From Escherichia phage AV125, in the sequence record OR352955.1: a DNA stretch of 64,000 bases. One strand, given 5' to 3'. Positions within the stretch are counted from its first letter, which is position 1. Each line of letters opens with the position of its first letter. The position numbers were made by a program, and so were the translations under genes. Under the pieces are notes generated by a model that made no database searches, was not told the DNA's origin, and was given only the letters and a program-made list of their open reading frames with translations. Below are positions 1 to 53,795 of the stretch, piece by piece.

Positions 1-1
1 T

Positions 2-313
2 CATGAAGGTAATTTTATTGAAAACTTAGACGATTATGATTTTTCTCCTAGCGCGGACGAACGGATCGCCCAGGATGTAACAGCCTTTATTAATGCTAAT
101 CTTGCCGCTATCTCTGAGGCAATGAGCGACGGCGCAACAGCCAACCAGATCGGGAATGATTTACATTTTACCCGTAACGGTCACGGCGTAGGCTTTTGGG
201 ATCGCCCTGAAATATACACCACTAACACGGCGAACCGCCTAACCAATGCAGCTAAGTTTATGCCGAACGTGTCGGCTTACATTGGTGAAGATAATTTGAT
301 TTATATTGAATAA
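2..313 (+). CDS. hypothetical protein, 3' portion (gene begins upstream of window)
   Basis: Reading frame is open from position 2 with no stop until 313; track ORF 122..313 is the tail of it. Confidence 0.5.
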   Translation, partial: HEGNFIENLDDYDFSPSADERIAQDVTAFINANLAAISEAMSDGATANQIGNDLHFTRNGHGVGFWDRPEIYTTNTANRLTNAAKFMPNVSAYIGEDNLIYIE

Positions 314-319
314 AAAGTA

Positions 320-347
320 TTGACACAGATCGCCAGTGTGCTAATAT
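320..347 (+). promoter_or_regulatory. sigma70-like early promoter (TTGACA-N16-TAATAT)
   Basis: TTGACA at 320-325, TAATAT at 342-347; followed by CCACGTAGGGC element shared with promoter at 1629. Confidence 0.55.
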
Positions 348-394
348 TTACCACGTAGGGCGGCAATGGTGCCGCCGATAATGAGGAAAGTAAA

Positions 395-694
395 ATGGAA
401 ACTATCGCTATTGTTACCGTAGAAAAACTGGTTGTTGGTGATGTATTCGCGTTAATGGTGCCTAACAGCAGCAAGCTGGGCGCTTATGAAGTAATGGATC
501 ATAAAAATGAATCATTTGGCGACGGTTGCACAATGGCGGTAAAATCTTTAAAGGATGGAATCATCCGCCAGGCTAACTGGCACAAAGGGAATCAAGTCGG
601 TTTAATATCAGCTAATTTCTTGCCAGAAGAGCAAACGTTAGACCAACTATCAGGCGGTAAGACGTTAGCCGAACTACTGGAAACAGCGATCTAA
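395..694 (+). CDS. hypothetical protein
   Basis: 99-aa ORF with GAGGAAAG RBS upstream; no recognisable motif. Confidence 0.55.
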   Translation: METIAIVTVEKLVVGDVFALMVPNSSKLGAYEVMDHKNESFGDGCTMAVKSLKDGIIRQANWHKGNQVGLISANFLPEEQTLDQLSGGKTLAELLETAI

Positions 695-738
695 TCAACA
701 AAGGGGCGGCAACGCCCCACATCAGAAAGGAAAAGATT

Positions 739-975
739 ATGAGTATTGCAACAGTATTAAACGCCGTTAAAACCGCTGAATCATCCGGCTTGCATGTTGA
801 GCTTATAGATCAACCAGGTGGCGATCTCCTTGTCCAGGTTTACCCGCCGAAAGTAGGGGATGATTATTATTGGGCTTATTCTGATACGTTCGAACAAGTA
901 GACACGAAAGCGATCACGGCTTTTATTTTAAAAGCTATTGAAGAAAATAACTTTCATCATAACATCAATCAATAA
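739..975 (+). CDS. hypothetical protein
   Basis: 78-aa ORF, RBS AAGGAAAAG; preceded and followed by GC hairpins (GGGGCGGCAACGCCCC, GCGGGGCGGTAACGCCCC). Confidence 0.55.
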   Translation: MSIATVLNAVKTAESSGLHVELIDQPGGDLLVQVYPPKVGDDYYWAYSDTFEQVDTKAITAFILKAIEENNFHHNINQ

Positions 976-1029
976 ACCATAAGCGGGGCGGTAACGCCCC
1001 ATTAAACGCAATAGGAAGAGGATAGACGC

Positions 1030-1320
1030 ATGAAAAAGATGATCGCAGTAGTTGCCCTGGTTGTTGGTATTAACGCGCCTGTACTGGCTAATGAGTTGCC
1101 AGAATCCATCACGCTAACCGATATCAACGCAATAAACCGGATCGGCGTTAATTATCGCCTATGCCTTGCCGCTAAAACTTTCCAGGACGGCACGACAGAA
1201 TACCACGGATTCGAGGGTATCCGCTGCGGTGAGCTTGCACGCGACCTTAAGGAAGATCCAGACCTTGAGGCCATACCGATGACCGTAAACGGTAAAGCTT
1301 ACGTAAACCGCCAACAATGA
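1030..1320 (+). CDS. secreted or periplasmic protein (N-terminal signal peptide)
   Basis: 96 aa; N-terminus MKKMIAVVALVVGINAPVLA is signal-peptide-like; RBS GGAAGAGG. Confidence 0.55.
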   Translation: MKKMIAVVALVVGINAPVLANELPESITLTDINAINRIGVNYRLCLAAKTFQDGTTEYHGFEGIRCGELARDLKEDPDLEAIPMTVNGKAYVNRQQ

Positions 1321-1451
1321 GAAAGGTAATCATCACAATGGGGATCATAGTAGCGACACTGGCGCTTATCCCCTTCATGGTTGAATATGTGCTGATCAGT
1401 GTTGTCCTGGTAGTCAGTGACCTATTGGAAACGGTTGGCAACTGGTTTTAA
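1317..1451 (+). CDS. small hydrophobic membrane protein (44 aa)
   Basis: ATG overlaps upstream stop (ATGA); translation MRKVIITMGIIVATLALIPFMVEYVLISVVLVVSDLLETVGNWF is one predicted TM segment; below track size cut-off. Confidence 0.4.
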   Translation: MRKVIITMGIIVATLALIPFMVEYVLISVVLVVSDLLETVGNWF

Positions 1452-1628
1452 AAATAAGAAAAACAGGACTTGTTTTTGTTCTGTTTTTTGTTATACTTAT
1501 TGAACGGGCGGCACCTGGAAGCAGGGGAAGATAATCACCGGAAGACCCCGCTATATATTGATAACTAACGCCTATCAAACAACAAAACATCAAAGGAATA
1601 AACTATCAAATCTTTACAATTCTACCTA

Positions 1629-1657
1629 TTGACACCGGATCACGCTTACACTATTAT
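1629..1657 (+). promoter_or_regulatory. sigma70-like early promoter (TTGACA-N17-TATTAT)
   Basis: TTGACA 1629-1634, TATTAT 1652-1657, then ATCACGTAGGGC; near-identical to promoter at 320. Confidence 0.6.
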
Positions 1658-1703
1658 TTATCACGTAGGGCAAACAATTTTAAACGGTAAACGAGGAATC
1701 ACC

Positions 1704-2087
1704 ATGAGCAATATCATCAACCTGGCAGCGACTGTAAACGGTAAAGACTTTAACGGCGCTGTAGACCGTGATCCTATGTGGTGCTTGTCAGTGTTTAAAG
1801 GCGATCTGGTTGAAGTTAGAACAACCGAAGGTTATAGCGATGATTATAAATGCGAGATTCATTTACATAATTGGTACACGGGTAAAACTTATGCGCTGAA
1901 TCACGCGTTTATCGGGAAAATTGAATATCGCGAGATGATCGACGATGAAACGGGGCAAGATTTTAGCGAAAACGTTTATATTCGTTCCGAGACATTAGCC
2001 GAACGTTTGATCGAGAAAATGAAAGCAAAAAATAAAATTAATTTATCTCATTGGATTGATATAACAAATGATCCGGCTTATCAGTAA
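1704..2087 (+). CDS. hypothetical protein
   Basis: Track ORF 1629..2087 would overlap the promoter; internal ATG at 1704 has RBS GAGGAA (MSNIINLAATVNGK...), 127 aa. Confidence 0.55.
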   Translation: MSNIINLAATVNGKDFNGAVDRDPMWCLSVFKGDLVEVRTTEGYSDDYKCEIHLHNWYTGKTYALNHAFIGKIEYREMIDDETGQDFSENVYIRSETLAERLIEKMKAKNKINLSHWIDITNDPAYQ

Positions 2088-2103
2088 ATAACATTTCATA
2101 CCA

Positions 2104-2130
2104 GGGCGCATCAAGCGCCCTTTCTTTTTG
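2104..2130 (+). terminator. rho-independent terminator
   Basis: GGGCGC-atcaa-GCGCCC hairpin followed by TTTCTTTTT. Confidence 0.7.
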
Positions 2131-2134
2131 CCCG

Positions 2135-3648
2135 AATAATGTTGATAGCTTTCGCCTATGAAAAACCGACACAGAACAAAACTGAATAAATCACGGTATC
2201 GAGCTAATCGACCATTAAACGAATAACCATACATCCCAGGGCAACAGGCTGTTAGAGAGCTATTTAGAGCGGTTAAAATCGATCAACAACCAACAACAAA
2301 CCATCAAAAACACCCTTTTACCTCTTTTCTAGTGCAATGATAACCATTATCATCTATCATTGATTATCTATTCAATATAAGTGCATAACTATAATGTTGA
2401 TAATAGTTCGCAACAACTAACCAACAAACAACATAAAACAATAAGCAAACTAATCATAATCAAAGGAATAATAGCAAGATGACTGATAACGACAAACAAT
2501 CAAACCATGATGAATATTAAACAAGATAACGATAACACGACAAAACAACCAACTAACGAACAATAACAAACGAAACCATTAAAAGATCAACTATTAGCAA
2601 AATAGTGTATATTGCCATAATAGTGACTGAATGAAATCATTACAAAACGAATCATTCCAAGGATCATCATTAGCACGCTACGCCGGACACGTAGCGAGCT
2701 AATAATAAGCCAACTACACCCCAACAATCATAACCATCGGTGATGGTTATTTCTTGTTACTGCGTAGCTTGCAATAATTGCAAGCGTAATGACGCTTACA
2801 CTTATTGCGCTGGCTTATTATTAGCATTATATGTAATTACTAAGATCATAACATTAGCGCAATAACAATAATCATTGTAATAGTTACAAGATGAGATCAT
2901 TAGCAAGATGAATAATTGCACGTAGCAACATGAGCGAATAGCGACAGGTTGCATAGTGTGCACATAGTGTATAAACATACAAGAAAATAAAGGCTAATCT
3001 TTTGGGGGCGAATACTATCGCTACGCGATATGTTGAGCACCTTCTCTTAAACGTAAATAAAATCAGAATAATCTTGATTTATTTTAGTTTTTATGTTAAT
3101 AAACGTTTAAATAATAATCATTCTCATATAAATAATAGTCTGCTTGTCATGAGCGGGATCAGTTGACAATGTTCCGTCATATGATGAAGTTGCCAAACCA
3201 TTGATAAATAAGTGTTTGTGTGATTTATAATCAAGTGGCCCACCTTGTCGCTACGTTGGTATGAGCCTTGCATAAGTCATTGAATACGAATGATAATTAT
3301 TCTCATTCGTATGATATTTGGGAATTGTCGCTGCGTGGACCTGACGGCCCGAAAATTCGCGTTAAGCACTTCTTACGTATGCGCCATGATTTTTGCCATA
3401 TGATATTGATTCTATTAGATATTCTTGCCATGATTGCCATGAAACAGGGTGTCCCGAAATAATCTCTCCCCGTAGATATTTTGGGTTACTTTTTATACAA
3501 GAGTGGGGTGTCAAAAATAATCGGTATATATAGGATAATTGATAGGAATCCCCTATGATAATTCGATTGTAATTCCCTAAGATTGATCGTATGATGTTGG
3601 TGATTGATGATTGCCATGAAAGATGGCTAACGATGAGAGGAGATTGTC
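2135..3648. other. 1.5-kb ORF-free region with strand compositional skew and short direct and inverted repeats
   Basis: No plausible ORF; 2280-2620 is A/C-rich and G-poor on the plus strand; recurring ATTAGC, TATGAT(A/G)TTG, GATTGCCATGAAA and GGGTGTC-N3-AAATAATC motifs; palindromes at about 2675-2705 and 3285-3325. Confidence 0.6.
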
Positions 3649-3993
3649 ATGCAAGAGAGTAAAAATGTTCCGTTGAGTAGTTTACGTCTAATGAAGTTTT
3701 ACAAAGCTTGGCTTGCTGGTGAGGTAGAAGGTCACACAACGAGTGGTTTGTGCATATGTTTGATTAAGTATGTAGAGGGAACATACCCTGATGAACTGTT
3801 ACCTCGTCTACAACAAGAGATGAAATCACAGTTTATTGGTGCAGGATTGGATTACAATTTCCCGTTTAATGAAGGTGGTTATGAGGAATACACCTTTGAA
3901 CATAAAAAACATATTTGCCATAAAAACAAACATCGTATACAATGGGTGCTAGATAGAATTCAAGATTATGAAGGAGAGAAAGATGACAAATAG
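3649..3993 (+). CDS. family A small protein (paralog 1 of 7)
   Basis: 114 aa; motifs FYKAWLAG, TSGLCICL, DYNFPFN, RIQWVLDRI shared with six other ORFs. Confidence 0.7.
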   Translation: MQESKNVPLSSLRLMKFYKAWLAGEVEGHTTSGLCICLIKYVEGTYPDELLPRLQQEMKSQFIGAGLDYNFPFNEGGYEEYTFEHKKHICHKNKHRIQWVLDRIQDYEGEKDDK

Positions 3994-4351
3994 TATTCCG
4001 TTGAGCAGTGCAACATTGCTTCGCTTCTATAAAGCATGGATTGCCAACTATCCTGCAATGAATCGCACAACGAGTGGCTTATGTGGTTGTCTGGTAGACT
4101 ATGTAGATGATTTTGTTGGTGATACACCTAGAGAAGAAGATAGAAAATGGCGTGATCATTTGTTGGACCGTTTGAAATATGAAATGAGGAAACAATTTAC
4201 ATGTGCAGGACTGGACTACAATCTTCCGTTCAATGCAGATTGCATGGATTACCTTTCAGAGTGTATAAACTTGGCGTGTCATACCAACACGTTACGTCTT
4301 CAGTGGGTGAAAGATCGGATTGAAGATGCAAATAATGCTTGCATTGAATAA
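3983..4351 (+). CDS. family A small protein (paralog 2 of 7)
   Basis: Start moved to ATG 3983 (RBS GGAGAG); FYKAWIAN, TSGLCGCL, DYNLPFN, RLQWVKDRI. Confidence 0.7.
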   Translation: MTNSIPLSSATLLRFYKAWIANYPAMNRTTSGLCGCLVDYVDDFVGDTPREEDRKWRDHLLDRLKYEMRKQFTCAGLDYNLPFNADCMDYLSECINLACHTNTLRLQWVKDRIEDANNACIE

Positions 4352-4400
4352 AGATGTTTGTATAATGGATGACATAACAGATAGCCAATGAGGAGATGAA

Positions 4401-4610
4401 ATGAAGAATTTGAAAACTGTCACAATGTTCTTGACTGATCCTACACGTGTGCAAGCACTGGCTAAAGCCAGCCGTGTAGCTGTAGAATTCCAAAACTTTA
4501 AGCCGTCCGTTGTGACAGGCAGTGAAACGTGTGTTATCGATTTCATTAACGAATACTTCCGAGGGAATCCGGTTGGTCGTTACTTTATTAAGGGTCTGAA
4601 GGATGCATAA
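4401..4610 (+). CDS. hypothetical protein
   Basis: 69-aa ORF, RBS GAGGAG. Confidence 0.5.
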   Translation: MKNLKTVTMFLTDPTRVQALAKASRVAVEFQNFKPSVVTGSETCVIDFINEYFRGNPVGRYFIKGLKDA

Positions 4611-4833
4611 CATGAAACGCATGAAAATTCGTATTGAGAATGATGGTGGTTATAAAGGATTGGCACATGCAAAATTTCCACTTGTGTTGGAAGCTACTGT
4701 GGAATACAGTGGGCTTGCTCATGTGCGATTCTCGAAGATGATGGAAGTGCAGGAATGGTTTTGGGACGAGATAGATGCACGAGAAGGGGAAGATTATGTT
4801 TTCTTTCCTCACGAATATGAAATTGTCTATTAA
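4603..4833 (+). CDS. hypothetical protein (paralog of 8920..9141)
   Basis: 76 aa; C-terminal EWFWDE...EGEDYVFFPHE matches EWFEED...EGCDYVFFSDE in 8920..9141. Confidence 0.5.
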   Translation: MHNMKRMKIRIENDGGYKGLAHAKFPLVLEATVEYSGLAHVRFSKMMEVQEWFWDEIDAREGEDYVFFPHEYEIVY

Positions 4834-4836
4834 GGG

Positions 4837-5085
4837 TTGTGTGCAATGATCACACCACAACAGAATGAAGCAGCAATGGATCTTCTCGATAGTTTGTATT
4901 TCGATAACTGGTACTCTGAATGTGAATGGATGAATATGCAAACTCTGAAAGAGAAGACAGAAGCGTTGATTACAGTAGATCAATTTCTTGCAGAGACGGA
5001 AAGAATGAATTATGATATGGCATCTCGCGCACGACGCGTTTCCATTTTCAATAAAATGTTAGCATTATGGGGAGGTAGAAAATGA
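4837..5085 (+). CDS. hypothetical protein
   Basis: 82-aa ORF in compact array. Confidence 0.45.
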   Translation: MCAMITPQQNEAAMDLLDSLYFDNWYSECEWMNMQTLKEKTEALITVDQFLAETERMNYDMASRARRVSIFNKMLALWGGRK

Positions 5086-5543
5086 GACAACCATCTATAC
5101 TGGAAGCGCATGTGCAATGTGTTGTAGATTATGTCAAAGAACACTCAAGTTTATTAAATGTAACCTGTGCAGTGCAAAATGATGTAGGCATTGTCTGTGT
5201 GCAACATATCTTATCTGAAACTCGTTATGAAGTATTTCGTGCCACGTTGTTTGGATGTGATCGAGTGCATGTAAACTTCCTGGACTCCAATTATCGTTAT
5301 GCTTTAGAAAATATTGATGATTATCTTCCTTGCTCTCCGACAGGATATGTAATGGTAACAGCAAACGAAGTAACACCAAGCAACAGTGAACGGGAAGCTT
5401 TGTTACGGAAGAAAATACGCCAACTGAAAATGCTGATGGAAATGCAAGAAGAGATTGAAAAAGAACTGAAAGAAGATTTTGGTATGCTTCCAAAAGACGC
5501 TTTGAAATGGTATGATGAACTAGGAGGAGAGAGCAATGTTTAA
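5082..5543 (+). CDS. hypothetical protein
   Basis: 153-aa ORF, start overlaps upstream stop; C-terminal charged coiled-coil-like segment. Confidence 0.55.
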   Translation: MRQPSILEAHVQCVVDYVKEHSSLLNVTCAVQNDVGIVCVQHILSETRYEVFRATLFGCDRVHVNFLDSNYRYALENIDDYLPCSPTGYVMVTANEVTPSNSEREALLRKKIRQLKMLMEMQEEIEKELKEDFGMLPKDALKWYDELGGESNV

Positions 5544-31503: not shown

Positions 31504-31519
31504 TGCCCCCGAAGGGGCA
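31504..31519 (-). repeat. intergenic UUCG-tetraloop hairpin
   Basis: GCCCC-CGAA-GGGGC. Confidence 0.5.
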
Positions 31520-31524
31520 GTTTG

Positions 31525-32217
31525 TTAAATAGCGGTTCCTTCGAAATCCGCCACATTTACGAGATTAATATTTTCAGATTTAGAAGTCAAGTTGTTTTCT
31601 GCAACAGATTTTTCTTCAGTATCCGCCTCGTTACCTGCCACGTTACGAGGTTCTTCTTCACCGTAGGGATTACCGAATTTCAAAAGATTGATCAATTCTT
31701 CTTTGGAGAAGTTTTCTAAATCATCGTCTGTTAATTCAATAATCTCGTCTTGTTCTTCAATAAATGTTTCACCACCAGAAAAAGCATCTCGCTTTTTAGC
31801 TACTTCCATAGCTTGTTCTGGTGTTGCCCCTGCGTCAAGAGCAGCTAAAGCAAAGTCTGACCCACTTCCTACTGCATAATATTCTTCATCAATCGGATAT
31901 GCACGTGTTGGGTTGTTACCTTCGTGCAAGAAAATACGTCCGTCTGGATGAACAACAAGTGCAATAAACTCTTCATCTTCTTTATCTGGATCAGAGTGAA
32001 TCATCAAACCAGGGACAGCATCACGTGCTGCTTCGCACTGTAGATTTTGTTCAAACCATTGAAAGAAAGAAAGCACGGAGGTCAGACGACCAGCACCACC
32101 TACAAGGTAATCTCCAATTTTTCGGACCTTTTTGAAATTAATAGAATCTACACGTCCACCAAAAGTTACCTTACCATCACTCAAAATCTTATTTTTGGTT
32201 GCAATAATTGTCGTCAC
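31525..32217 (-). CDS. HslV-like (ClpQ) N-terminal-Thr peptidase with acidic C-terminal extension
   Basis: MTTII... start (Thr2 nucleophile position), NFKKVRKI and [21 protein letters not shown] align with E. coli HslV NVKKVRRL and [33 protein letters not shown] matches the HslV GSGG segment. Confidence 0.7.
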   Translation of the reverse strand: [230 protein letters not shown]

Positions 32218-32720
32218 TATTCTTCCTCCTCTGTTAATGTTTTAAGAACCGCTTTCCCGCCATTCACATATTTGCAGATGTATTCTATCGCACGTAGTGT
32301 CTCTTTGTCAACAAAAATTTGATCAGACGTTGCGAGCGGGTTATTAAGAAGATCACTACAATCACGAACAAGCAGTGCTTTCTTATTAAACAAATTACTT
32401 AAGAACAGTAACTTCGCCTCTTCTTCTGTTATGTGCAGAAGACTGGGATCGGAGCCAGCTATTCCTATTATACAATCAAACAAGCTTTCTTTACTATCAG
32501 AAAGTTCTTGAAAATGGTTTAAAAGCCAATCTTCTCCTAGACACCAACATTTAAACATTTCCAGTTTATCTCGGAGGGTCATATTCTCTAAAGTAAGAGC
32601 AATCTCTTTTTCAATATGGTTTACACAAATTTGACGAAATTCGTTAGGTTTTACGAGTCCCGTTTGATAGCACTCATCTATACCGCTTCTTCCGATAGCT
32701 ATTGTTGCTACACCCATCAA
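32217..32720 (-). CDS. hypothetical protein
   Basis: 167-aa ORF. Confidence 0.5.
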   Translation of the reverse strand: MMGVATIAIGRSGIDECYQTGLVKPNEFRQICVNHIEKEIALTLENMTLRDKLEMFKCWCLGEDWLLNHFQELSDSKESLFDCIIGIAGSDPSLLHITEEEAKLLFLSNLFNKKALLVRDCSDLLNNPLATSDQIFVDKETLRAIEYICKYVNGGKAVLKTLTEEEE

Positions 32721-32752: not shown

Positions 32753-33511
32753 TTAAATAAACACTTCAGTAATCAGTTTAGACAAACGTCCACGTTTATT
32801 ATCGTCCGTTGTCAGTTCAACGTATCCAATAAAATCTACAATTGGTTCACGAACACCTTCTTCATTTTCTGGATATAAAAGTTCCAAAATTTGATGCAGA
32901 CCATTGCTACGTTTTTTAATTGCATATGTCTGGCGAACATCGCCTAATACAATAACATGCGTATTAATACCTGCACGTTCAATAAGAAGTTTAAGTGTTT
33001 CTGTTGACATAAGTTGTGCTTCGTCAATAATGACGATTGTATTATCCAGGGTAGCCCCCAACAAATAGTTAGGAATATTCAATTCGATCTTACCTGATCC
33101 AATATCGTTTTCCAATTTGTTGGCTGTCATGAATTGCTGGAAAATACGTTTTGTAGATTCATAGTGTGCTGCTAGTTTATCTGTTTTATCCCCAGACAAG
33201 AAACCAATCTGGTCATCTCCGACTTCAGTAGGGTTCTTGATAAAAAGTAGTTTACGGAAGTCTCCTGAACGAAGCATCTGCAAAGCTTTCCATAAAGCAA
33301 CAGAGGTTTTACCAGTCCCTGCCGGAGCATTTACAACAGTCAGATCATTCCAGATCATGCTTTGAACAATCTTATTTTGGTCCCCTTCAGGCATAAATTC
33401 ATCTAAACGGTAATCGTCATTACCTACCGCTTTTGCTGCATAACGGCTTTCAATCTTTGCTGAATTAGCCAGTTTCTGCCGTTGTGTTTTAGCTGCGGTT
33501 TTATTTCCCAT
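32753..33511 (-). CDS. phoH: PhoH-like ATPase
   Basis: Walker A NAPAGTGKTSVAL; start moved to second ATG (33511) preceded by RBS AAAGGAG and an intergenic hairpin. Confidence 0.8.
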   Translation of the reverse strand: MGNKTAAKTQRQKLANSAKIESRYAAKAVGNDDYRLDEFMPEGDQNKIVQSMIWNDLTVVNAPAGTGKTSVALWKALQMLRSGDFRKLLFIKNPTEVGDDQIGFLSGDKTDKLAAHYESTKRIFQQFMTANKLENDIGSGKIELNIPNYLLGATLDNTIVIIDEAQLMSTETLKLLIERAGINTHVIVLGDVRQTYAIKKRSNGLHQILELLYPENEEGVREPIVDFIGYVELTTDDNKRGRLSKLITEVFI

Positions 33512-33530
33512 AGTAGCACTCCTTTTAGAA

Positions 33531-33544
33531 GGGGCCGAAGCCCC
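33531..33544 (-). repeat. intergenic UUCG-tetraloop hairpin
   Basis: GGGGCCGAAGCCCC between lysozyme stop and PhoH start. Confidence 0.6.
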
Positions 33545-33548
33545 TTTA

Positions 33549-34049
33549 TTAGTTGTAAGCATCTAAAGTTCCAGAAGTCAGAACTTTAATTACTCGTTCA
33601 GCACGGTTTGGCGTCTGGCTATACCATCGGCTTTTACGCATGTTTTTACCTGCTTGAGTATAATATGCATTGCTGATTAAAGTCAAGCTATTTTGAAACC
33701 CTTCAGCACCTTTTAACCCCAACTGGAAAACCATGTTGATTATTCCCAATTTACGAGTATCACTCACCTTATCATAGATTGGTGATAAGATAGCACTGTT
33801 TTTTATGTCTCTCTTCACTTTTGCAACATCGTCAGCAAAGATTTGACGGGCTTCTTTTTCTGTGATAACTCCATTAGTCTTACGACCAAGAAGATTATCT
33901 AAGATTTGAATAGCCTTTGCTTTATCTTTTATTTTAGTCAGAAGGTGTCCTATGCCGACTGTCCAATAACCAAGATGGTCTTGATAAACAGTAAGCTTCA
34001 GTCCTTCATCGACTCGTAGCATATCAAACTCATCTACTACTTTAGCCAT
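33549..34049 (-). CDS. e: T4-type lysozyme (endolysin, gene e family)
   Basis: FDMLRVDEGLKLTVYQDHLGYWTVGIGHLL and KSRWYSQTPNRAERVI align closely with T4 lysozyme (catalytic Glu/Asp/Thr positions present). Confidence 0.9.
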   Translation of the reverse strand: MAKVVDEFDMLRVDEGLKLTVYQDHLGYWTVGIGHLLTKIKDKAKAIQILDNLLGRKTNGVITEKEARQIFADDVAKVKRDIKNSAILSPIYDKVSDTRKLGIINMVFQLGLKGAEGFQNSLTLISNAYYTQAGKNMRKSRWYSQTPNRAERVIKVLTSGTLDAYN

Positions 34050-34211: not shown

Positions 34212-34472
34212 TTACTCCGCAATTTGAGCCATGAGATCACGCAGTTCGGTAAAACCGCCTACGTATGTTACCTCCCCGTTCACTTCAGACAAAATTTGTG
34301 GAAATGTGCGTGGAGGAACTCCGGTAAGATCAACAACTGTTTTAGTCATTGATTCTAAATCGTAGTCTTGGTCAAGACTTAAATATTCAAACTGTTTATT
34401 GCGCATGGTTAATAGTTGTTTTGACATTTCGCAAAATTGACAGTTAGGTTTACCAAAAATTACAAATTCCAT
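34212..34472 (-). CDS. glutaredoxin-like protein (NrdC/NrdH-like)
   Basis: 86 aa, CQFC redox motif near N-terminus, TFPQI...GG fold signature. Confidence 0.75.
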   Translation of the reverse strand: MEFVIFGKPNCQFCEMSKQLLTMRNKQFEYLSLDQDYDLESMTKTVVDLTGVPPRTFPQILSEVNGEVTYVGGFTELRDLMAQIAE

Positions 34473-35314
34473 TACCTCTCCTTATTAAGTAATACTGCTA
34501 AAGACCGTTCAATACCTTTATTTAAATCTGATTTTGTAAGATAGTGACTGGTTACTAGTTGTGACTTCACCGGACGTGCTGCTGGAGCATTATAGGTTGA
34601 AGCTGATACCGCCGATATCTTAACAGGTTCTGGCATCTGTGTCAAGATCTTTTCCGCAAACTCCGCCCAAGAAATAAGATGGCTTCCTGCAAAATGGTAA
34701 GTCTTTACAGATCTTGACCAACCTGTTTTTAATACTTCAAAAATAGCTTCTGCTAAATCTGGGGCATATGTTGGACAAGAGAACTGATCTGCAACGATAG
34801 TAAAATCACGTTGTCCATCATTATAGCGAGACAACATAGTTTTTAGAAAGTTATTTCCAAATTCACTATATACAGACGCTGTTCGAATAATATATGCGTT
34901 CGGGTTAACTCCTCGCACCATTTTTTCACCGAGTTCTTTCGTATACCCATAATTGTTTATCGGGTTAGGTGTAGTATCTTCAAAAATAGGATGAGAATAA
35001 TTAAAAATATAGTCTGTAGAAATATGCACAAAATCAATTTTAAGTTTGCTGCACACTGCCGCAATATTTGCAGGGCCATAGGCATTAACAGCCAAAGCAG
35101 TAGCAAAATCATGTTCTGCTTTATCTACAGCCGTATAAGCAGCGCAATTAATAACACCATCTACATAATCTTCAATAATAGCGTTTCGCACAGCTTCAAA
35201 ATTTGTAATATCTACACGTTCTTTAGGATAAATTAAAGACACATTTGAAGGAGCCACTTTACGTAAAGCTTGTCCCAGTTGTCCATTACCACCCAATACC
35301 AGATATGTTAGCAT
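34472..35314 (-). CDS. rmlD: dTDP-4-dehydrorhamnose reductase
   Basis: MLTYLVLGGNGQLGQAL Rossmann start, length 280 aa, position after rmlC. Confidence 0.8.
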   Translation of the reverse strand: MLTYLVLGGNGQLGQALRKVAPSNVSLIYPKERVDITNFEAVRNAIIEDYVDGVINCAAYTAVDKAEHDFATALAVNAYGPANIAAVCSKLKIDFVHISTDYIFNYSHPIFEDTTPNPINNYGYTKELGEKMVRGVNPNAYIIRTASVYSEFGNNFLKTMLSRYNDGQRDFTIVADQFSCPTYAPDLAEAIFEVLKTGWSRSVKTYHFAGSHLISWAEFAEKILTQMPEPVKISAVSASTYNAPAARPVKSQLVTSHYLTKSDLNKGIERSLAVLLNKER

Positions 35315-35874
35315 ACACCCTCGCTACGTAACTGTTGAAAAGACTTAGCCATTGCATCTTTTGTTGATAAGATAGGTTTAAAATCTTCGTCAAAAATCAT
35401 ATCGAAGCCCCAATCAATCCCTATATCAGGATCATCCCAACGTAAACTTTGTTCGCTGGAAGGGTCGTATGGAGTTGTGCATTTGTATTCGAAGATAGCA
35501 TCCATACTCAACACTATAAAACCATGTGCCAAACCAGGTGGAAGCCAGAACTGTGTATGGTGTCGTGCACGAAGAACAACACCGTCCCAAGCACCGTAAG
35601 TAGGACTATCTTTACGTAGGTCTACAGCGAAATCCAATACTTCCCCACTTACACAACGAACAAGCTTACCTTGCGGATTATTTGTTTGAAAGTGCATTCC
35701 TCGCAAAACACCGAAGTTTGATTTAGACATGTTATCTTGAACGAAAGTTTGTCTACCAATGATATCTTCATATTTTTGTTCATTATATGTTTCTAAAAAG
35801 AAACCACGGTCATCTTTATAAACGTCTGGTTTGATAATTACCGCACCTTCAATTTTTGTTTTTTCTACTTTCAT
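35308..35874 (-). CDS. rmlC: dTDP-4-dehydrorhamnose 3,5-epimerase
   Basis: Start at ATG 35874 (RBS GGAGGG); RGFFLETY, RGMHFQ cupin motifs; about 188 aa. Confidence 0.8.
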   Translation of the reverse strand: MKVEKTKIEGAVIIKPDVYKDDRGFFLETYNEQKYEDIIGRQTFVQDNMSKSNFGVLRGMHFQTNNPQGKLVRCVSGEVLDFAVDLRKDSPTYGAWDGVVLRARHHTQFWLPPGLAHGFIVLSMDAIFEYKCTTPYDPSSEQSLRWDDPDIGIDWGFDMIFDEDFKPILSTKDAMAKSFQQLRSEGVC

Positions 35875-35950
35875 TTTCCCTCCGCTAATTTGAGTAGGTA
35901 TTGCCCGTACTCTGTTTTCTTCAGTGAGTTTCCATGGTAGACCAAAGTCT

Positions 35951-36748
35951 CTAAAGAAATCCACCCTTTTTGAAAGCAATTTCTTCCAGGCACGCAATCT
36001 TCAATCCTTGACAGTTCTCAATAGTCTGCACGAATTGACCAGCTTCCATCAGACTGGCGTGTGTTCCTGTGTCAAGCCAAGTAAATCCTCGTCCGAGAAC
36101 TTCTACTTGTAACTTCCTGTCTTCGAGGTAGCTGCGATTGATATCGGTGATCTCCAGTTCTCCACGCGCGGAAGGGGTTACTTCTAATGCACGTTGAATA
36201 ACAGAGTTATCATAGAAATATAAACCTGTGACAGCATAATCTGATTTAGGATTTTCAGGTTTCTCTTCAATAGAAATAACTTGACGATTACTCCCAAATT
36301 CAACCACACCGAATCGTTCAGGATCTTTCACCAAACACCCGAAGATACAAGCTCCGCCCCAAACATCTACCATCTCACTAGCGTTAATCAGTAGTTTACC
36401 AAAGCTTTGTCCGAAGAATAGGTTGTCACCTAAAATAAGAGCAACAGAGTCTTCTCCGATAAAATCTTTACCGATGATGAAAGCGTCCGCAAGACCTCGT
36501 GGCTCGGATTGGATTGCGTAAGTGAGTTTTATCCCAAACATAGACCCATCTCCAAGAAGATGCTCAAAGTCTTCCTGATCGCCTGGTGTGGTGATGATTA
36601 AGATATCCTTAATGTCAGCCAACATCAATACCGATAAGGGGTAGTAGATCATGGGTTTGTCATACACAGGGAGCAATTGCTTGCTCACACTGCGTGTTAC
36701 CGGATGAAGGCGGGTTCCACTTCCTCCCGCCAAAATAATACCTTTCAT
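35951..36748 (-). CDS. rmlA: glucose-1-phosphate thymidylyltransferase
   Basis: [18 protein letters not shown]...[18 protein letters not shown] signature. Confidence 0.9.
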
Positions 36749-36756
36749 AACCCTCC

Positions 36757-37749
36757 TTAAATCTTCTTACTCCACCATTGAGGGTTGTTTAAGTACCATT
36801 CAATCGTTGAGTAGAGATCTTGTTCAAATGTAGAGTTTGCACTCCAACCCAGTTCAGACTCTATTTTAGAAGGATTGATTTCATAACGCAAGTCATGTCC
36901 TTTACGATCTTCAACAAAAGTTATCAAGTTGGAAGAAGGGTAGGTTCCTGCTTCTGGATGTACAGCATCCATGTAGTCACAAACCATATAGATGATCTCC
37001 ATATTGGTTTTGGGATTACGTGTTCCAACATTATACGTTTGACCTGGTTCTCCACCTGTTGCCACTTGAAGAATAGCTCGCGCATGATCCTCAACAAAAA
37101 GCCAGTCTCGCACCTGATCGCCTTTACCATACACCGGAATCTCTTTATTCGTCAAGATACTTGTGATGATTTTTGGGATCAGCTTTTCTGGATGTTGATA
37201 AGGTCCAAAGTTATTGGAGCAGTTGGTTATCACAACAGGTAAACCGTAGGTACGGTACCAAGCTTTCACAAGATGGTCAGATGCTGCCTTAGACGCACTG
37301 TACGGGCTTGAAGGGGCATAAGCTGTCTCTTCGGTAAAGGGAACGCCAGAGTCTGCCATATCGCCGTACACTTCGTCTGTGGAGACATGTACGAACATCT
37401 TAAGTTTATTTTTTGGGAGGAGCCTTGCAGCTTCCAATAAATTGTATGTACCAATAATATTGGAGTCGATGAAAACTCGTGGATTCTTGATAGAATTATC
37501 CACATGACTCTCTGCCGCTAAGTGAATGATGAAATCGGGATTGCACTCTACTACTAAACTTTTGACCTGGGTTTCGTTTGCCAAATCTGTTATGCTTAGT
37601 TTAACGTGAGTGATATCGCCTACATTCTCAATATCTGCTGCATAGCCCATCTTATCAACGACAAAAACTTCGTTATTGGGATCTTGACAAAGAGAGCGCA
37701 CCACGGCACTCCCAATAAAACCAAGACCACCTGTTACCAGATAGCGCAT
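36757..37749 (-). CDS. rmlB: dTDP-glucose 4,6-dehydratase
   Basis: [17 protein letters not shown] Rossmann, SDR catalytic YxxxK region, 330 aa. Confidence 0.9.
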
Positions 37750-46507: not shown

Positions 46508-47467
46508 TTAGATTCCAATAATAGTTGCTGCTCGTTTATCTTTGGATCTGGTGTTTGCTCTACTACGTGACAAACCTCCACAAGATTCACAACGAATGAT
46601 ATCGAAAGAACTTACCGCAGTGTGGTATTGTTTACCAGTAACAACGTGAACGTGATCACTGCCACAACGAGAACAACGGACCTTCTCATCTGGGTAATAA
46701 GCGGATAAGTTAGGATGCTGTGGAATCCACGGAAGGATTTTCATATACAAATCACGGAGCGAAACAACATCACCATCATTGTAAATCTGCATACGTTCAA
46801 AAGCATCACGATCACCTTCACAACATGCTTTCCATAAAGGGAACCCCTCGTTATCCAGTTTTTCACTTTCTGTTTCGAAATATGCTCCCATTTCTTTAAG
46901 GGAGTTGGAAGGAAGTGCAAATTGTTTCTTAGCTGCCTTCAATGTATCAACAACTACATAATTAGAAGGAGGAGCCATATCGTGATATGCAAATCGTTGG
47001 TTAATGTATGCACGGTCAAACTTATATCCGTTGTGTGCCACAACTACATCTGCCTCATTCAGAAGGTTCCAAAGATCTTGGCAAAGCTCCCAATCATCTG
47101 TATGATCAATATCAAAAAGAGGATAAGAAGACAAGTTCTTACCTTCCACTTCACCAGTATACAGGTCGGCAGAAGAGTAAGATAACAAATAACCCCTACG
47201 AATTACTTGATCTGGAGAAATGAAGGCTTTGAATCGACGGAAAGTATATGCAATCTCTGGTGCAGTTTCAACATCAATAATTTTAATAACTGGTTGTTTC
47301 TTTTTAACGGGTTCTTGTTTACTTCCACTGAAACGTGCAAGGAAATCATTTACTGTGCTTTTTCTTGTTGGGCTACCTAAAACAATTGCTGCAATATTTC
47401 GAGAAGACATACCCTCTGCACTCATACTAAGGATATCTGCTTTCTGCTCTTCTGTTAATCTGCTCAC
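46508..47467 (-). CDS. DnaQ-like 3'-5' exonuclease (DexA-like) with N-terminal HTH and C-terminal zinc ribbon
   Basis: Exo I IIDVETAPE, Exo II VVVAHNGYKFDRAYI, Exo III YNDGDV; CSRCGS...CESCGG. Confidence 0.7.
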   Translation of the reverse strand: MSRLTEEQKADILSMSAEGMSSRNIAAIVLGSPTRKSTVNDFLARFSGSKQEPVKKKQPVIKIIDVETAPEIAYTFRRFKAFISPDQVIRRGYLLSYSSADLYTGEVEGKNLSSYPLFDIDHTDDWELCQDLWNLLNEADVVVAHNGYKFDRAYINQRFAYHDMAPPSNYVVVDTLKAAKKQFALPSNSLKEMGAYFETESEKLDNEGFPLWKACCEGDRDAFERMQIYNDGDVVSLRDLYMKILPWIPQHPNLSAYYPDEKVRCSRCGSDHVHVVTGKQYHTAVSSFDIIRCESCGGLSRSRANTRSKDKRAATIIGI

Positions 47468-48153
47468 TCTGCCTCCTGTTGCGAGATGTATGACTGAAGC
47501 ATACTCTCAAATGTTGTATCGTCATTATCCCAGCGTTTCATGTATACCAACTGGAAAATTGTTTCTATCCATTCATCTGTTGTCATATGGACTTCTTCTC
47601 CATCCCAAGAAGTAAAATTAACACCATCTGGGAACCATGAGTAGTAAGTATCTTTAACTGTTTGGAAAAGTTCTGCTTGAGTTTTACAAGCTGAAAGAAG
47701 ATTAAAACAAGTAATATCTCCGAACTTAATATCAAAATCTTGATAAGGTCGGATACTATCTGTTTTATCTCCCATTAGCATCTGATATGCTAACCAGTAA
47801 CTGCCCCAACCTTTAACTTCTTTCTTTTTACCTTTATCTACGATCCATATATCGCCAATAGACTCGTCAATAAGAATTATATCTGGATTTTTAAATACTC
47901 CATCCTCTTTGTAGAAATTAAAAAGGATACTAGGAGTATGTAAACTATCTTTATCTATAGACACTACGATATAAGAAAATTTACCCGTCCTTTTATAATC
48001 TTTATAACCTTGGAAACCATACTTCTCTAACTCATCATCAGCCTCTATTACAGTAACAACATCACCATTGTGGAACTCCACAAGATAATCTTTGGTTTCT
48101 GAAAGCTGAAGTGGTTTGATATCTAATCGTTCAGACTTATATTCTACAGGCAT
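47464..48153 (-). CDS. FEN/RNase H-like 5'-3' exonuclease (ATG-initiated portion; frame is open a further 441 nt upstream)
   Basis: WLAYQMLMGDKTDSIRP resembles the FEN/T4 RNase H helix-3-turn-helix GDKxDN motif; acidic clusters ILIDESIGDIWIVD. Confidence 0.6.
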   Translation of the reverse strand: MPVEYKSERLDIKPLQLSETKDYLVEFHNGDVVTVIEADDELEKYGFQGYKDYKRTGKFSYIVVSIDKDSLHTPSILFNFYKEDGVFKNPDIILIDESIGDIWIVDKGKKKEVKGWGSYWLAYQMLMGDKTDSIRPYQDFDIKFGDITCFNLLSACKTQAELFQTVKDTYYSWFPDGVNFTSWDGEEVHMTTDEWIETIFQLVYMKRWDNDDTTFESMLQSYISQQEAE

Positions 48154-48594
48154 TTTGAAGGCGTGTCTGAAAGTTTTTCCTACGCCAATAACTCCGCAAT
48201 ATTTTTCTAAACGTAGATGTTTTAGAATACCTAAGACTTTTGTTTTAGCTGCTTGGAAGGTGTGTCCGATATCTTCTGGCGGGTATTGCTTATCAATGAT
48301 TTCGAACTCTTCCTTTGTGAAGGGACGTTTGTTTTTGGAGGCTCTTTCTGCATTTGTATCTCCTAGCCAACCTCCAATTTTAGTCTTGCTTTTACCCCAA
48401 AACTCTGTCTTATTTTTAAATTCCTTTTGAGCACCTGAAGGGATGTGCTTCGCAATGATTGTTCTTTTCTCTAATGCAGACGCTGCTTGGAAAGCGATCT
48501 GATCATAATCAATTGCAGCTATTGTTTCTTCGTTGACATATAAATGAAGATCTTCAGGTTTAATTAAAATATAACCGCTAATATTTCCCCCTAA

Positions 48595-53390: not shown

Positions 53391-53795
53391 TTATTGAAGT
53401 TTAAGTGAACCACGAAGACGTTTCTCTTGCTGATCACGGATATATTGTGGAACCTCGTGAATTGAATCATTACCGTGCCTATTTTCAACAATTAAAGAGA
53501 TAACTTGATAACCAAACTCTTCAGCAAGAGCTAGATAAGGTTTAAGTTCTTTCTCTGTGGTTGAAGTATTAGAAACAATAATCTTGTTAAGATTAGATGC
53601 CATAGCATCACGAACAATATCCTGACACCATGCGTGTGCTTTACCTACATTTTCTGGCTTCCAATCGTAAACACCACTCTCTGTGTAATGATATTGATCT
53701 GCCTCACAGATAGGCCAATAACCTTCAGAAATAATTTCTGCTACTGTAGATTTACCAGCACCTGAAACGCCACGTAAAATGATAAGTTGTTTCAT
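53391..53795 (-). CDS. polynucleotide kinase-like P-loop kinase (kinase domain only)
   Basis: MKQLIILRGVSGAGKSTVAEII and IIVSNTSTTEKELKPYLALAEEFGY parallel T4 Pnk [22 protein letters not shown] and VIISDTNLNPERR. Confidence 0.65.
   Translation of the reverse strand: MKQLIILRGVSGAGKSTVAEIISEGYWPICEADQYHYTESGVYDWKPENVGKAHAWCQDIVRDAMASNLNKIIVSNTSTTEKELKPYLALAEEFGYQVISLIVENRHGNDSIHEVPQYIRDQQEKRLRGSLKLQ

Follow-up and report, generated by a model that had tools for sequence, protein, structure and literature searches.

Among proteasome homologues, the phage-specific PPH proteins and the RPC proteins have been described as lacking helix H2 of the fold (Fuchs et al. 2021). PPH, which comprises about 140 residues and has no co-occurring AAA+ partner, was called the first truly viral proteasome-like protein, whereas RPC has a C-terminal extension and is known in the same report from proteobacteria alone, with no phage examples (Fuchs et al. 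2021). In bacterial HslV, the C-termini of HslU enter pockets between HslV subunits that include Phe54, Phe57 and Gln114 together with Ala79 and Lys80 of helix H2 (PMC6429459). HslV genes without HslU were also noted in the genome paper of phage pSal-SNUABM-04. The present analysis concerns a gene at positions 31525..32217, on the minus strand, of a 64,000-nucleotide stretch of Escherichia phage AV125 (sequence record OR352955.1), hereafter the window. The gene encodes a protein of 230 amino acids, which an earlier note, made from the letters of the window, had described as an HslV-like protease with a 60-residue acidic tail and no adjacent HslU.

The source belongs to Phapecoctavirus (Stephanstirmvirinae), among the E. 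coli myophages of the phAPEC8 type, and the 8 kb surrounding the protease gene are 99.7% identical to phage Schickermooser. The protein itself is 99.6% identical to phAPEC8_0094 and to Schickermooser gp078, and orthologues occur in more than 60 deposited genomes, where they are labelled 'peptidase HslV family' (RefSeq, phAPEC8_0094), 'ATP-dependent protease subunit', 'putative 20S proteasome' or 'hypothetical protein'. More broadly, phage proteasome homologues are widespread, with more than 5,000 clusters at an expectation value (E) of 1E-10 or below and matches to the AV125 protein in 270 phage genome records, 106 of them from Escherichia phages. The gene, its family and the pattern of HslV without HslU are already known from RefSeq, PHROG annotation, Fuchs et al. 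2021 and the pSal-SNUABM-04 paper. The value of the analysis is mainly corrective: the HslV label is overstated, the idea of host HslU as partner is weakened, and the tail resolves into a conserved motif followed by a variable linker.

Fold, active site and family placement

The protein is an N-terminal-nucleophile (Ntn) hydrolase of the proteasome/HslV family. It passes the Pfam Proteasome model (PF00227; 25.6 bits, gathering score 22.4), and it matches PHROG 1040, 'peptidase HslV family', with E 1.6E-63, residues 1-229 (tail included) falling on profile positions 14-247 of 277. The best sequence match among solved structures is HslV, with the Thermotoga maritima protein (1m4y) at E 4.9E-9. 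An hhalign comparison of the family profile with E. coli HslV gives a probability of 96.7% over residues 1-149 at 26% identity, and pairs T1, D17, K33 and the GSG segment of the phage protein with the matching residues of HslV, as checked in the actual E. coli sequence. The alignment proposed in the earlier note, which had included the GSG segment, is thereby borne out. An AlphaFold2 (AF2) model of the monomer has a predicted local distance difference test score (pLDDT) of 81.7 overall and above 90 through the core; in a Foldseek search with this model, HslV comes first (E 1E-10, template modelling (TM) score 0.70), followed by BPH and by archaeal and eukaryotic 20S beta subunits, all with a probability of 1.00.

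The reading frame, which includes the TAA stop codon at 31525-31527, opens with the codons GTG-ACG-ACA-ATT, and the protein begins MTTIIATK. A Shine-Dalgarno sequence, GGAGG, read directly from the sequence, lies at 32225..32229 (minus strand), 7 nucleotides 5' of the GTG. Because almost every one of the 233 collected family sequences opens with MTT[IV], with a threonine in place for exposure after methionine removal, as the earlier note had pointed out for this protein, the GTG start is taken as real; no propeptide is present. The next in-frame ATG is Met72, from which a truncated form of 159 amino acids has been annotated in one GenBank record (P0023). The hslV gene of E. coli K-12 (L010:2758-3288) likewise starts with GTG followed by ACC ACA ATA, giving (M)TTI, the same unusual arrangement of start codon and N-terminus as in the phage gene.

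The catalytic Ntn core spans residues 1-155 (31753..32217, minus strand), as delimited by the conserved columns, the region of AF2 pLDDT above 90, Foldseek and hhalign. The codon for Thr1, ACG (residue T2), is at 32212-32214 on the minus strand, and the remaining core sites within 31753..32217 are D14 (Asp), K30 (Lys), GGAG at 40-43, GSG at 117-119 and RDAFSGG at 143-149. The active-site set of proteasome beta subunits (Thr1, Asp17, Lys33, Gly47, Ser129, Asp166 and Ser169), with roles assigned after Fuchs et al. 2021 and the established proteasome literature, is matched by T2, D14, K30, GGAG 40-43, S118, D144 and S147, and the HslV hallmark of Thr1 directly after the initiator methionine, with Lys33 and Ser124 (GSG), is present as T2, K30 and G117-S118-G119. 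In an alignment of 32 sequences reaching down to 25% identity, T2, D14, K30 and G117-S118-G119 are among the columns that show no variation, and G41-A42-G43 and D144 are kept by 90% or more of the sequences; S147, from the RDAFSGG motif, is on neither of these lists. The proteasome-type catalytic residues all vary little or not at all across the family, so that catalysis is probably retained. The alignment check of the catalytic Thr, Lys and Gly positions that the earlier note had suggested thus comes out in its favour, and neither of the two findings that it had named as fatal to its proposal, a loss of catalytic residues or a better match to a non-protease Ntn hydrolase family, was encountered: the residues are intact and the top folds are those of the proteasome family.

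Agreement in fold and catalytic set does not, however, extend to HslV proper. The NCBIfam HslV equivalogs both score below their cut-offs, TIGR03692 at 31.4 bits against 157.75 and NF003964 at 32.2 bits against 137. The RDAFSGG motif after helix H4 has what we take to be the form found in 20S beta subunits (Asp166/Ser169/Gly170) and not that found in HslV. Finally, helix H2 is missing. In its place is an acidic loop of 18 residues containing proline and glycine (residues 66-83; 31969..32022, minus strand), which DSSP assigns as coil at a pLDDT of 71-80 and which gives a gapped alignment against the H2 region of HslV. On these three grounds, the comparison of sequences indicates that the protein is not an HslV orthologue and that the 'HslV family' label in the databases overstates the relationship; of the original description as an HslV-like protease, the fold and the catalytic residues stand and the equation with HslV does not.

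The same features place the protein, as judged from its sequence, as a long-form member of the known phage-specific proteasome-like branch, the PPH type. It shares with PPH the location in phages (270 phage records), a coil instead of H2, and an MTT start without a propeptide. It departs from PPH in size, being neither compact at about 140 residues nor free of a C-terminal extension: its 230 residues include a 75-residue extension with a conserved motif. A profile search recovered 10,930 cluster representatives at E ≤1E-3, 5,235 of them at E ≤1E-10. The top-scoring matches are about 60 clusters of long forms (180-350 amino acids, clustered at 50% identity), after which come thousands of short forms of 137-155 amino acids. 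Homologues of about 140 amino acids match the family profile with E values between 1E-25 and 1E-32.

Anatomy of the C-terminal extension

The acidic tail of the earlier note is indeed acidic, but it is longer than the 60 residues first proposed, at about 75, and it is not simply acidic, as a conserved helical motif comes first. Residues 156-230 contain 20 Asp or Glu and five Lys or Arg, for a net charge of -15. The proximal part, residues 156-183 (31669..31752, minus strand), is modelled with helices at 164-169 and 172-181 at a pLDDT of about 87. It contains the motif [FLM][ST][KR]E[EQ]L[LIV]xx[LM] (approximately residues 160-183), which in most long forms is found 20-27 residues past the SGG and which also occurs in Vibrio and Aeromonas phage proteins that are 34-37% identical to the phage protein. 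The distal part, residues 184-230 (31528..31668, minus strand), is acidic and disordered, differs in length between relatives and shows little conservation, with a pLDDT below 50 at residues 190-229 and a net charge of -8 over residues 186-230.

Conservation falls from one part of the protein to the next. Identity to the window protein in the core (residues 1-155) is 79% among close relatives and 43% among distant long forms; for the proximal tail (156-183) the corresponding values are 49% and 34%, and for the distal tail (184-230) they are 22% (with 34% gaps) and 15% (with 50% gaps). The tails of long forms are nevertheless acidic in every case examined, with net charges of -2 to -36, whereas the stubs of the 140-residue forms are mostly neutral or basic; the tail motif and the negative charge are thus conserved in long forms only.

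In many marine and metagenomic long forms (P0090-P0138; L003:4001-4867), the acidic linker is followed by a terminal motif of about 35 residues, 'L..A..L.I.YAHNIG.EKL..RI', and CxxC pairs occur instead in the C-termini of a few relatives (P0061-P0063). The Phapecoctavirus protein has the acidic linker only, without the further C-terminal domain of its marine relatives. The C-terminus of the protease family is modular. Pfam searches with six tails returned nothing below E 0.03, and a profile of the 'AHNIGxEKL' motif found in the PDB only an artefactual match to a designed repeat protein. The motif bears some resemblance to HeH/SAP motifs, a likeness to which these Pfam and PDB profile searches lent no support.

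Other proteasome subunits carry helix H5 at the position of the proximal motif, and their C-termini generally point away from the ring (Fuchs et al. 2021). Given this position and orientation, the proximal helix may be an assembly or docking element and the acidic stretch a flexible arm.

Proposed mode of action, partner ATPases and rival readings

The reading favoured here, with a probability of roughly 65%, is that of a catalytically competent threonine peptidase of the proteasome family, of the phage-specific PPH type and not orthologous to HslV, which would act independently of an unfoldase. The initiator methionine would be removed by the methionine aminopeptidase of the host, a threonine at the second position being permissive as in E. 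coli HslV, to leave the free amino group of Thr1. This nucleophile would work with Asp17, Lys33, the oxyanion loop in the Gly47 region, Ser129 (GSG) and Asp166/Ser169 (RDxxSGG). Homology makes it probable that the subunits form a ring-shaped, self-compartmentalised oligomer. Its most likely substrates would be peptides and unfolded or disordered proteins, handled without a dedicated AAA+ unfoldase, as has been proposed for BPH and other orphans. The proximal tail helix, at the H5 position of other subunits, would probably serve in assembly or docking, and the distal stretch would be a fast-evolving disordered linker, which in marine relatives leads into the extra C-terminal domain. The gene would be of the early/middle class and accessory, and phage growth in the laboratory would probably not require it.

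Independence from an unfoldase is suggested by two observations, namely that the acidic loop replaces the HslU-docking helix H2 and that no gene of HslU or ClpX type accompanies the family. Only three open reading frames with a Walker-A motif were found in the window, and none is AAA+: a PhoH-like P-loop ATPase (32753..33562, minus strand; PF02562, E 1.2E-36), which is the nearest ATPase gene, a PHROG 107 exonuclease (47464-48594) and a polynucleotide kinase (PNK)-like kinase (53391-53795). PhoH was considered as an unfoldase partner and rejected, as it is a PhoH/helicase-type P-loop protein rather than an AAA+ unfoldase and is absent beside the Caulobacter homologue. No hslU gene was found in the annotated genome of the 99.7%-identical phage, bases 1-5314 excepted. 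A search with E. coli HslU matched 153 phage records, mostly jumbo phages of Erwinia, Salmonella and Pseudomonas together with Prevotella Lak phages. Escherichia phages with an HslU match amount to four records (the 240-kb Lh1B among those listed), compared with 106 for the protease, and Phapecoctaviruses are not among the HslU matches listed.

Several points weigh against the favoured reading. No biochemical data for any member of the branch were found in the literature searched, nor any experiment that shows for a phage proteasome homologue its activity, its substrate, its oligomeric state or a phenotype in infection; the searches covered phage proteasome homologues, phAPEC8 with HslV, and Phapecoctavirus expression and returned annotation-level mentions only. 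The role suggested for the tail follows from its position and conservation. One of the pocket residues, Phe57, is kept and Phe54 is conservatively replaced by Leu, according to our own mapping of the alignment, which leaves a small chance of HslU binding. Phages nearly identical to AV125 encode a classical-clade AAA ATPase of 379 amino acids (Schickermooser gp174, PHROG 2376), so that the earlier statement that no AAA+ partner is encoded nearby holds locally only. Finally, the model is of a monomer only, so that ring assembly without H2 is presumed, and Fuchs et al. 2021 warn that rings may not be a feature of all homologues.

The earlier note had left it open whether the protein works alone or with host HslU. 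In the latter case, HslV-like rings of the phage protein would dock onto HslU hexamers of the host, and would either redirect or sequester the unfoldase, leading to ATP-dependent degradation of selected proteins of the host or the phage. The E. coli host does have hslVU, HslV is the closest solved relative in both sequence and fold (26% identity to the E. coli protein), and the hydrophobic positions of H1 are partly kept, with Phe at the position of Phe57 and Leu at that of Phe54. However, the HslU-binding surface of H1 and H2 is not reproduced, as the coil at residues 66-83 leaves the pocket residues Ala79 and Lys80 without an equivalent, and the position of Lys28, which in HslV makes a salt bridge with the terminal carboxylate of HslU, is occupied by Ser in the phage protein and by S, Q, D or T across the family. 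Docking of host HslU is disfavoured for these two reasons. The HslV equivalog scores of about one-fifth of the cut-offs and an RDxxSGG motif that looks closer to 20S beta than to HslV also speak against such a hybrid, as do the bare cores of about 140 residues that many phages encode with no reported link to HslU. It is therefore considered unlikely, and action of the protein alone is preferred.

A more ambitious version of unfoldase independence is that the long forms constitute a distinct viral proteasome, in which the C-terminal helix and acidic tail of a ring protease act as a built-in gate or recruitment arm. The marine module would belong to the same arm, and basic, DNA-associated host or defence proteins could be drawn in early in infection. 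This proposal is also doubtful, and a little more speculative than the hybrid.

Less probable again is a protein that is not a general protease, but rather a specific amidase or ligase of the connectase kind, or a non-catalytic scaffold or decoy in which the acidic tail would matter most, for instance by mimicry that captures basic or DNA-binding proteins of the host. The Ntn fold does support varied chemistry, connectase being a ligase, and the strong acidity of the tail and the extra C-terminal modules of relatives would suit a binding role. Yet the proteasome-type catalytic set is invariant or nearly so, helix H1 is present, there is no connectase-like insertion between S3 and S4, and all of the top fold matches are proteases of the proteasome family. 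Conservation, moreover, is lowest in the distal tail.

The phage's own AAA ATPase is an improbable partner, although a pairing with gp174 would make the protease a fully phage-encoded ATP-dependent one. Near-identical phages encode both proteins, and at ≥60% identity each gene is present in about 132-133 records, so that the two look like core genes of the subfamily. In the Schickermooser record (NC_048196.1), gp174 lies at 132886-134025, which is approximately 12 kb beyond the left end of the window and 44 kb from the protease gene, in a different transcription unit and on the opposite strand. It scores 29.9 bits against PF00004, and its best solved relatives are Rix7 and AFG2. Many members of the ATPase family come from phages of Enterococcus, Bacillus, Staphylococcus, Lactobacillus and Lactococcus, none of which is among the genera listed for the protease matches. 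Conversely, protease-bearing phages of Vibrio, Caulobacter and Rhizobium have this ATPase rarely or not at all. Because its distribution does not follow that of the protease gene, gp174 is judged an unlikely partner; its C-terminus, which ends in GSVF, is also not an HbYX motif. Jumbo phages and large phages that infect Gram-positive bacteria widely encode homologues of the PHROG 2376 ATPase, and one record names such a protein 'FtsH-like protease'.

A role in capsid (prohead) maturation or other virion assembly, for which nothing speaks beyond the protein being a phage protease, is scarcely tenable, because a separate S78-type prohead protease gene (Peptidase_S78_2) sits among the structural genes, between portal and scaffold/capsid genes, whereas the gene analysed here lies on the opposite strand in an early/middle nucleotide-metabolism cluster and has lost its catalytic N-terminus in a record deposited as a complete genome.

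Gene neighbourhood, variants and comparison with known systems

According to the Schickermooser annotation, the minus-strand early/middle cluster that holds the protease gene also contains PhoH, lysozyme, glutaredoxin, rmlABCD and ribonucleotide reductase, and the structural genes are elsewhere, on the strand opposite to the protease. Directly upstream is an open reading frame of 167 amino acids (32217..32720, minus strand; PHROG 14834), which is co-inherited with the protease only within a Stephanstirmvirinae-like clade. Its model shows a confident helical-domain fold without a structural relative. The TAG stop codon of this reading frame and the GTG of the protease share one base, an overlap that would probably couple their translation.

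Two further local signals are consensus matches only. A sigma-70-like site at 32282-32311 (minus strand; TTGACA, 18 nucleotides, TAGAAT), with 11 of 12 consensus positions, lies in the 3' part of the upstream reading frame, and could be a promoter of the protease gene's own, about 65 nucleotides 5' of its start. A terminator-like GC hairpin with a T-run at 31504..31519 (minus strand), located by consensus scan 5 nucleotides 3' of the stop codon, probably marks where the transcription unit ends.

A PhoH-like gene is found one to six genes upstream of the protease homologue in Justusliebigvirus, Vibrio and Aeromonas phages, and does not adjoin the Caulobacter homologue; the proximity of the two genes is probably inherited synteny. 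Farther upstream, a complete dTDP-rhamnose pathway (rmlD, rmlC, rmlA and rmlB homologues; 34472-37749, minus strand) adjoins glutaredoxin and a T4-type lysozyme, and several glycosyltransferases are annotated elsewhere in a near-identical phage genome.

Some of the public records need to be read with care. Campylobacter phages B15, A150 and A145, Acinetobacter phage vB_AbaM_ABPW7, Klebsiella phage ZCKP1 and 'Dompiswa phage' share 99% identity with Phapecoctavirus or Justusliebigvirus genomes from E. coli, and the host labels of these records look doubtful. The RefSeq names derived from PHROGs are also unreliable here: the S78 prohead protease appears as 'DNA methyltransferase' and proteins of 190 amino acids as 'histidyl tRNA synthetase'.

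One variant bears on dispensability. In the Justusliebigvirus VEcB record MT932211.1 (MT932211), PhoH residues 1 to about 113 are fused in frame to the protease homologue from residue 63 onward. By comparison with a second VEcB assembly, OZ035773.1 (OZ035773), about 1.12 kb is missing, bounded by an 8-bp alignment overlap. The deletion takes the C-terminal half of PhoH, a reading frame of 164 amino acids and protease residues 1-62, the part that holds Thr1, Asp17 and Lys33. Three genes have thus been knocked out naturally, or else the assembly is at fault. Unless it is an artefact, a viable isolate without all three genes would make the protease gene probably dispensable, which fits an accessory role. 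The E. coli phage protein is the most tractable entry point into the family, given clean genetics, the availability of a delta-hslU host, phage knock-outs and this probable natural deletion variant.

Duplications also occur. Genes 210 and 211 of Aeromonas phage 2L372D (L004:3432-3983 and L004:4001-4885) are tandem PHROG 1040 paralogues, one a core-only form of 183 amino acids that has Thr1 but GCG for GSG, and the other a long form of 294 amino acids with the tail motif. Such a pair might form hetero-oligomeric rings, as alpha and beta subunits do. Two to three matches per genome are likewise found in Vibrio phage 501E54-1 and in a Bertelyvirus, and Salmonella phage pSal-SNUABM-04 has two HslV genes.

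Compared with described systems, the AV125 protein has the proteasome fold in common with the HslV-like and HslU-like proteins of jumbo phages, such as those of Erwinia phage vB_EamM_Special G and the 'HslU-superfamily homologue' of Erwinia phage RAY (gp116). Those phages, however, also encode HslU/ClpX-like ATPases, and their HslV-fold proteins are only 18-19% identical to it. BPH (PDB 5ovs/5ovt) is likewise an orphan proteasome homologue with no known unfoldase, and is matched in fold at E 2E-10, although the TM score of 0.55 is lower than the 0.70 obtained with HslV; BPH keeps both helices and lacks an acidic tail at its C-terminus. The cavity of BPH is lined by an acidic loop that follows H1/H2 (Fuchs et al. 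2021) and may be compared with the acidic loop of the phage protein. Bacterial HslV (ClpQ) of the HslUV protease, a dodecamer built from two hexameric rings that HslU activates, shares the M-T-T-I N-terminus, Thr1, Asp17, Lys33, GSG and the fold, and provides the best match among solved structures, but at 26% identity the phage protein lacks H2 and Lys28, and has RDxxSGG, an acidic tail and no hslU neighbour.

The RPC proteins resemble it in having a C-terminal extension and differ in that those described come from proteobacteria rather than phages. PHROG 1040, phAPEC8_0094 and Schickermooser gp078 represent effectively the same protein, with no structural difference. With PPH, it has in common a phage origin, the group I fold, the absence of a propeptide, of H2 and of an AAA+ partner, and a preserved catalytic triad; where PPH ends at about 140 residues, a core of about 155 residues is here followed by a 75-residue extension with a conserved helical motif.

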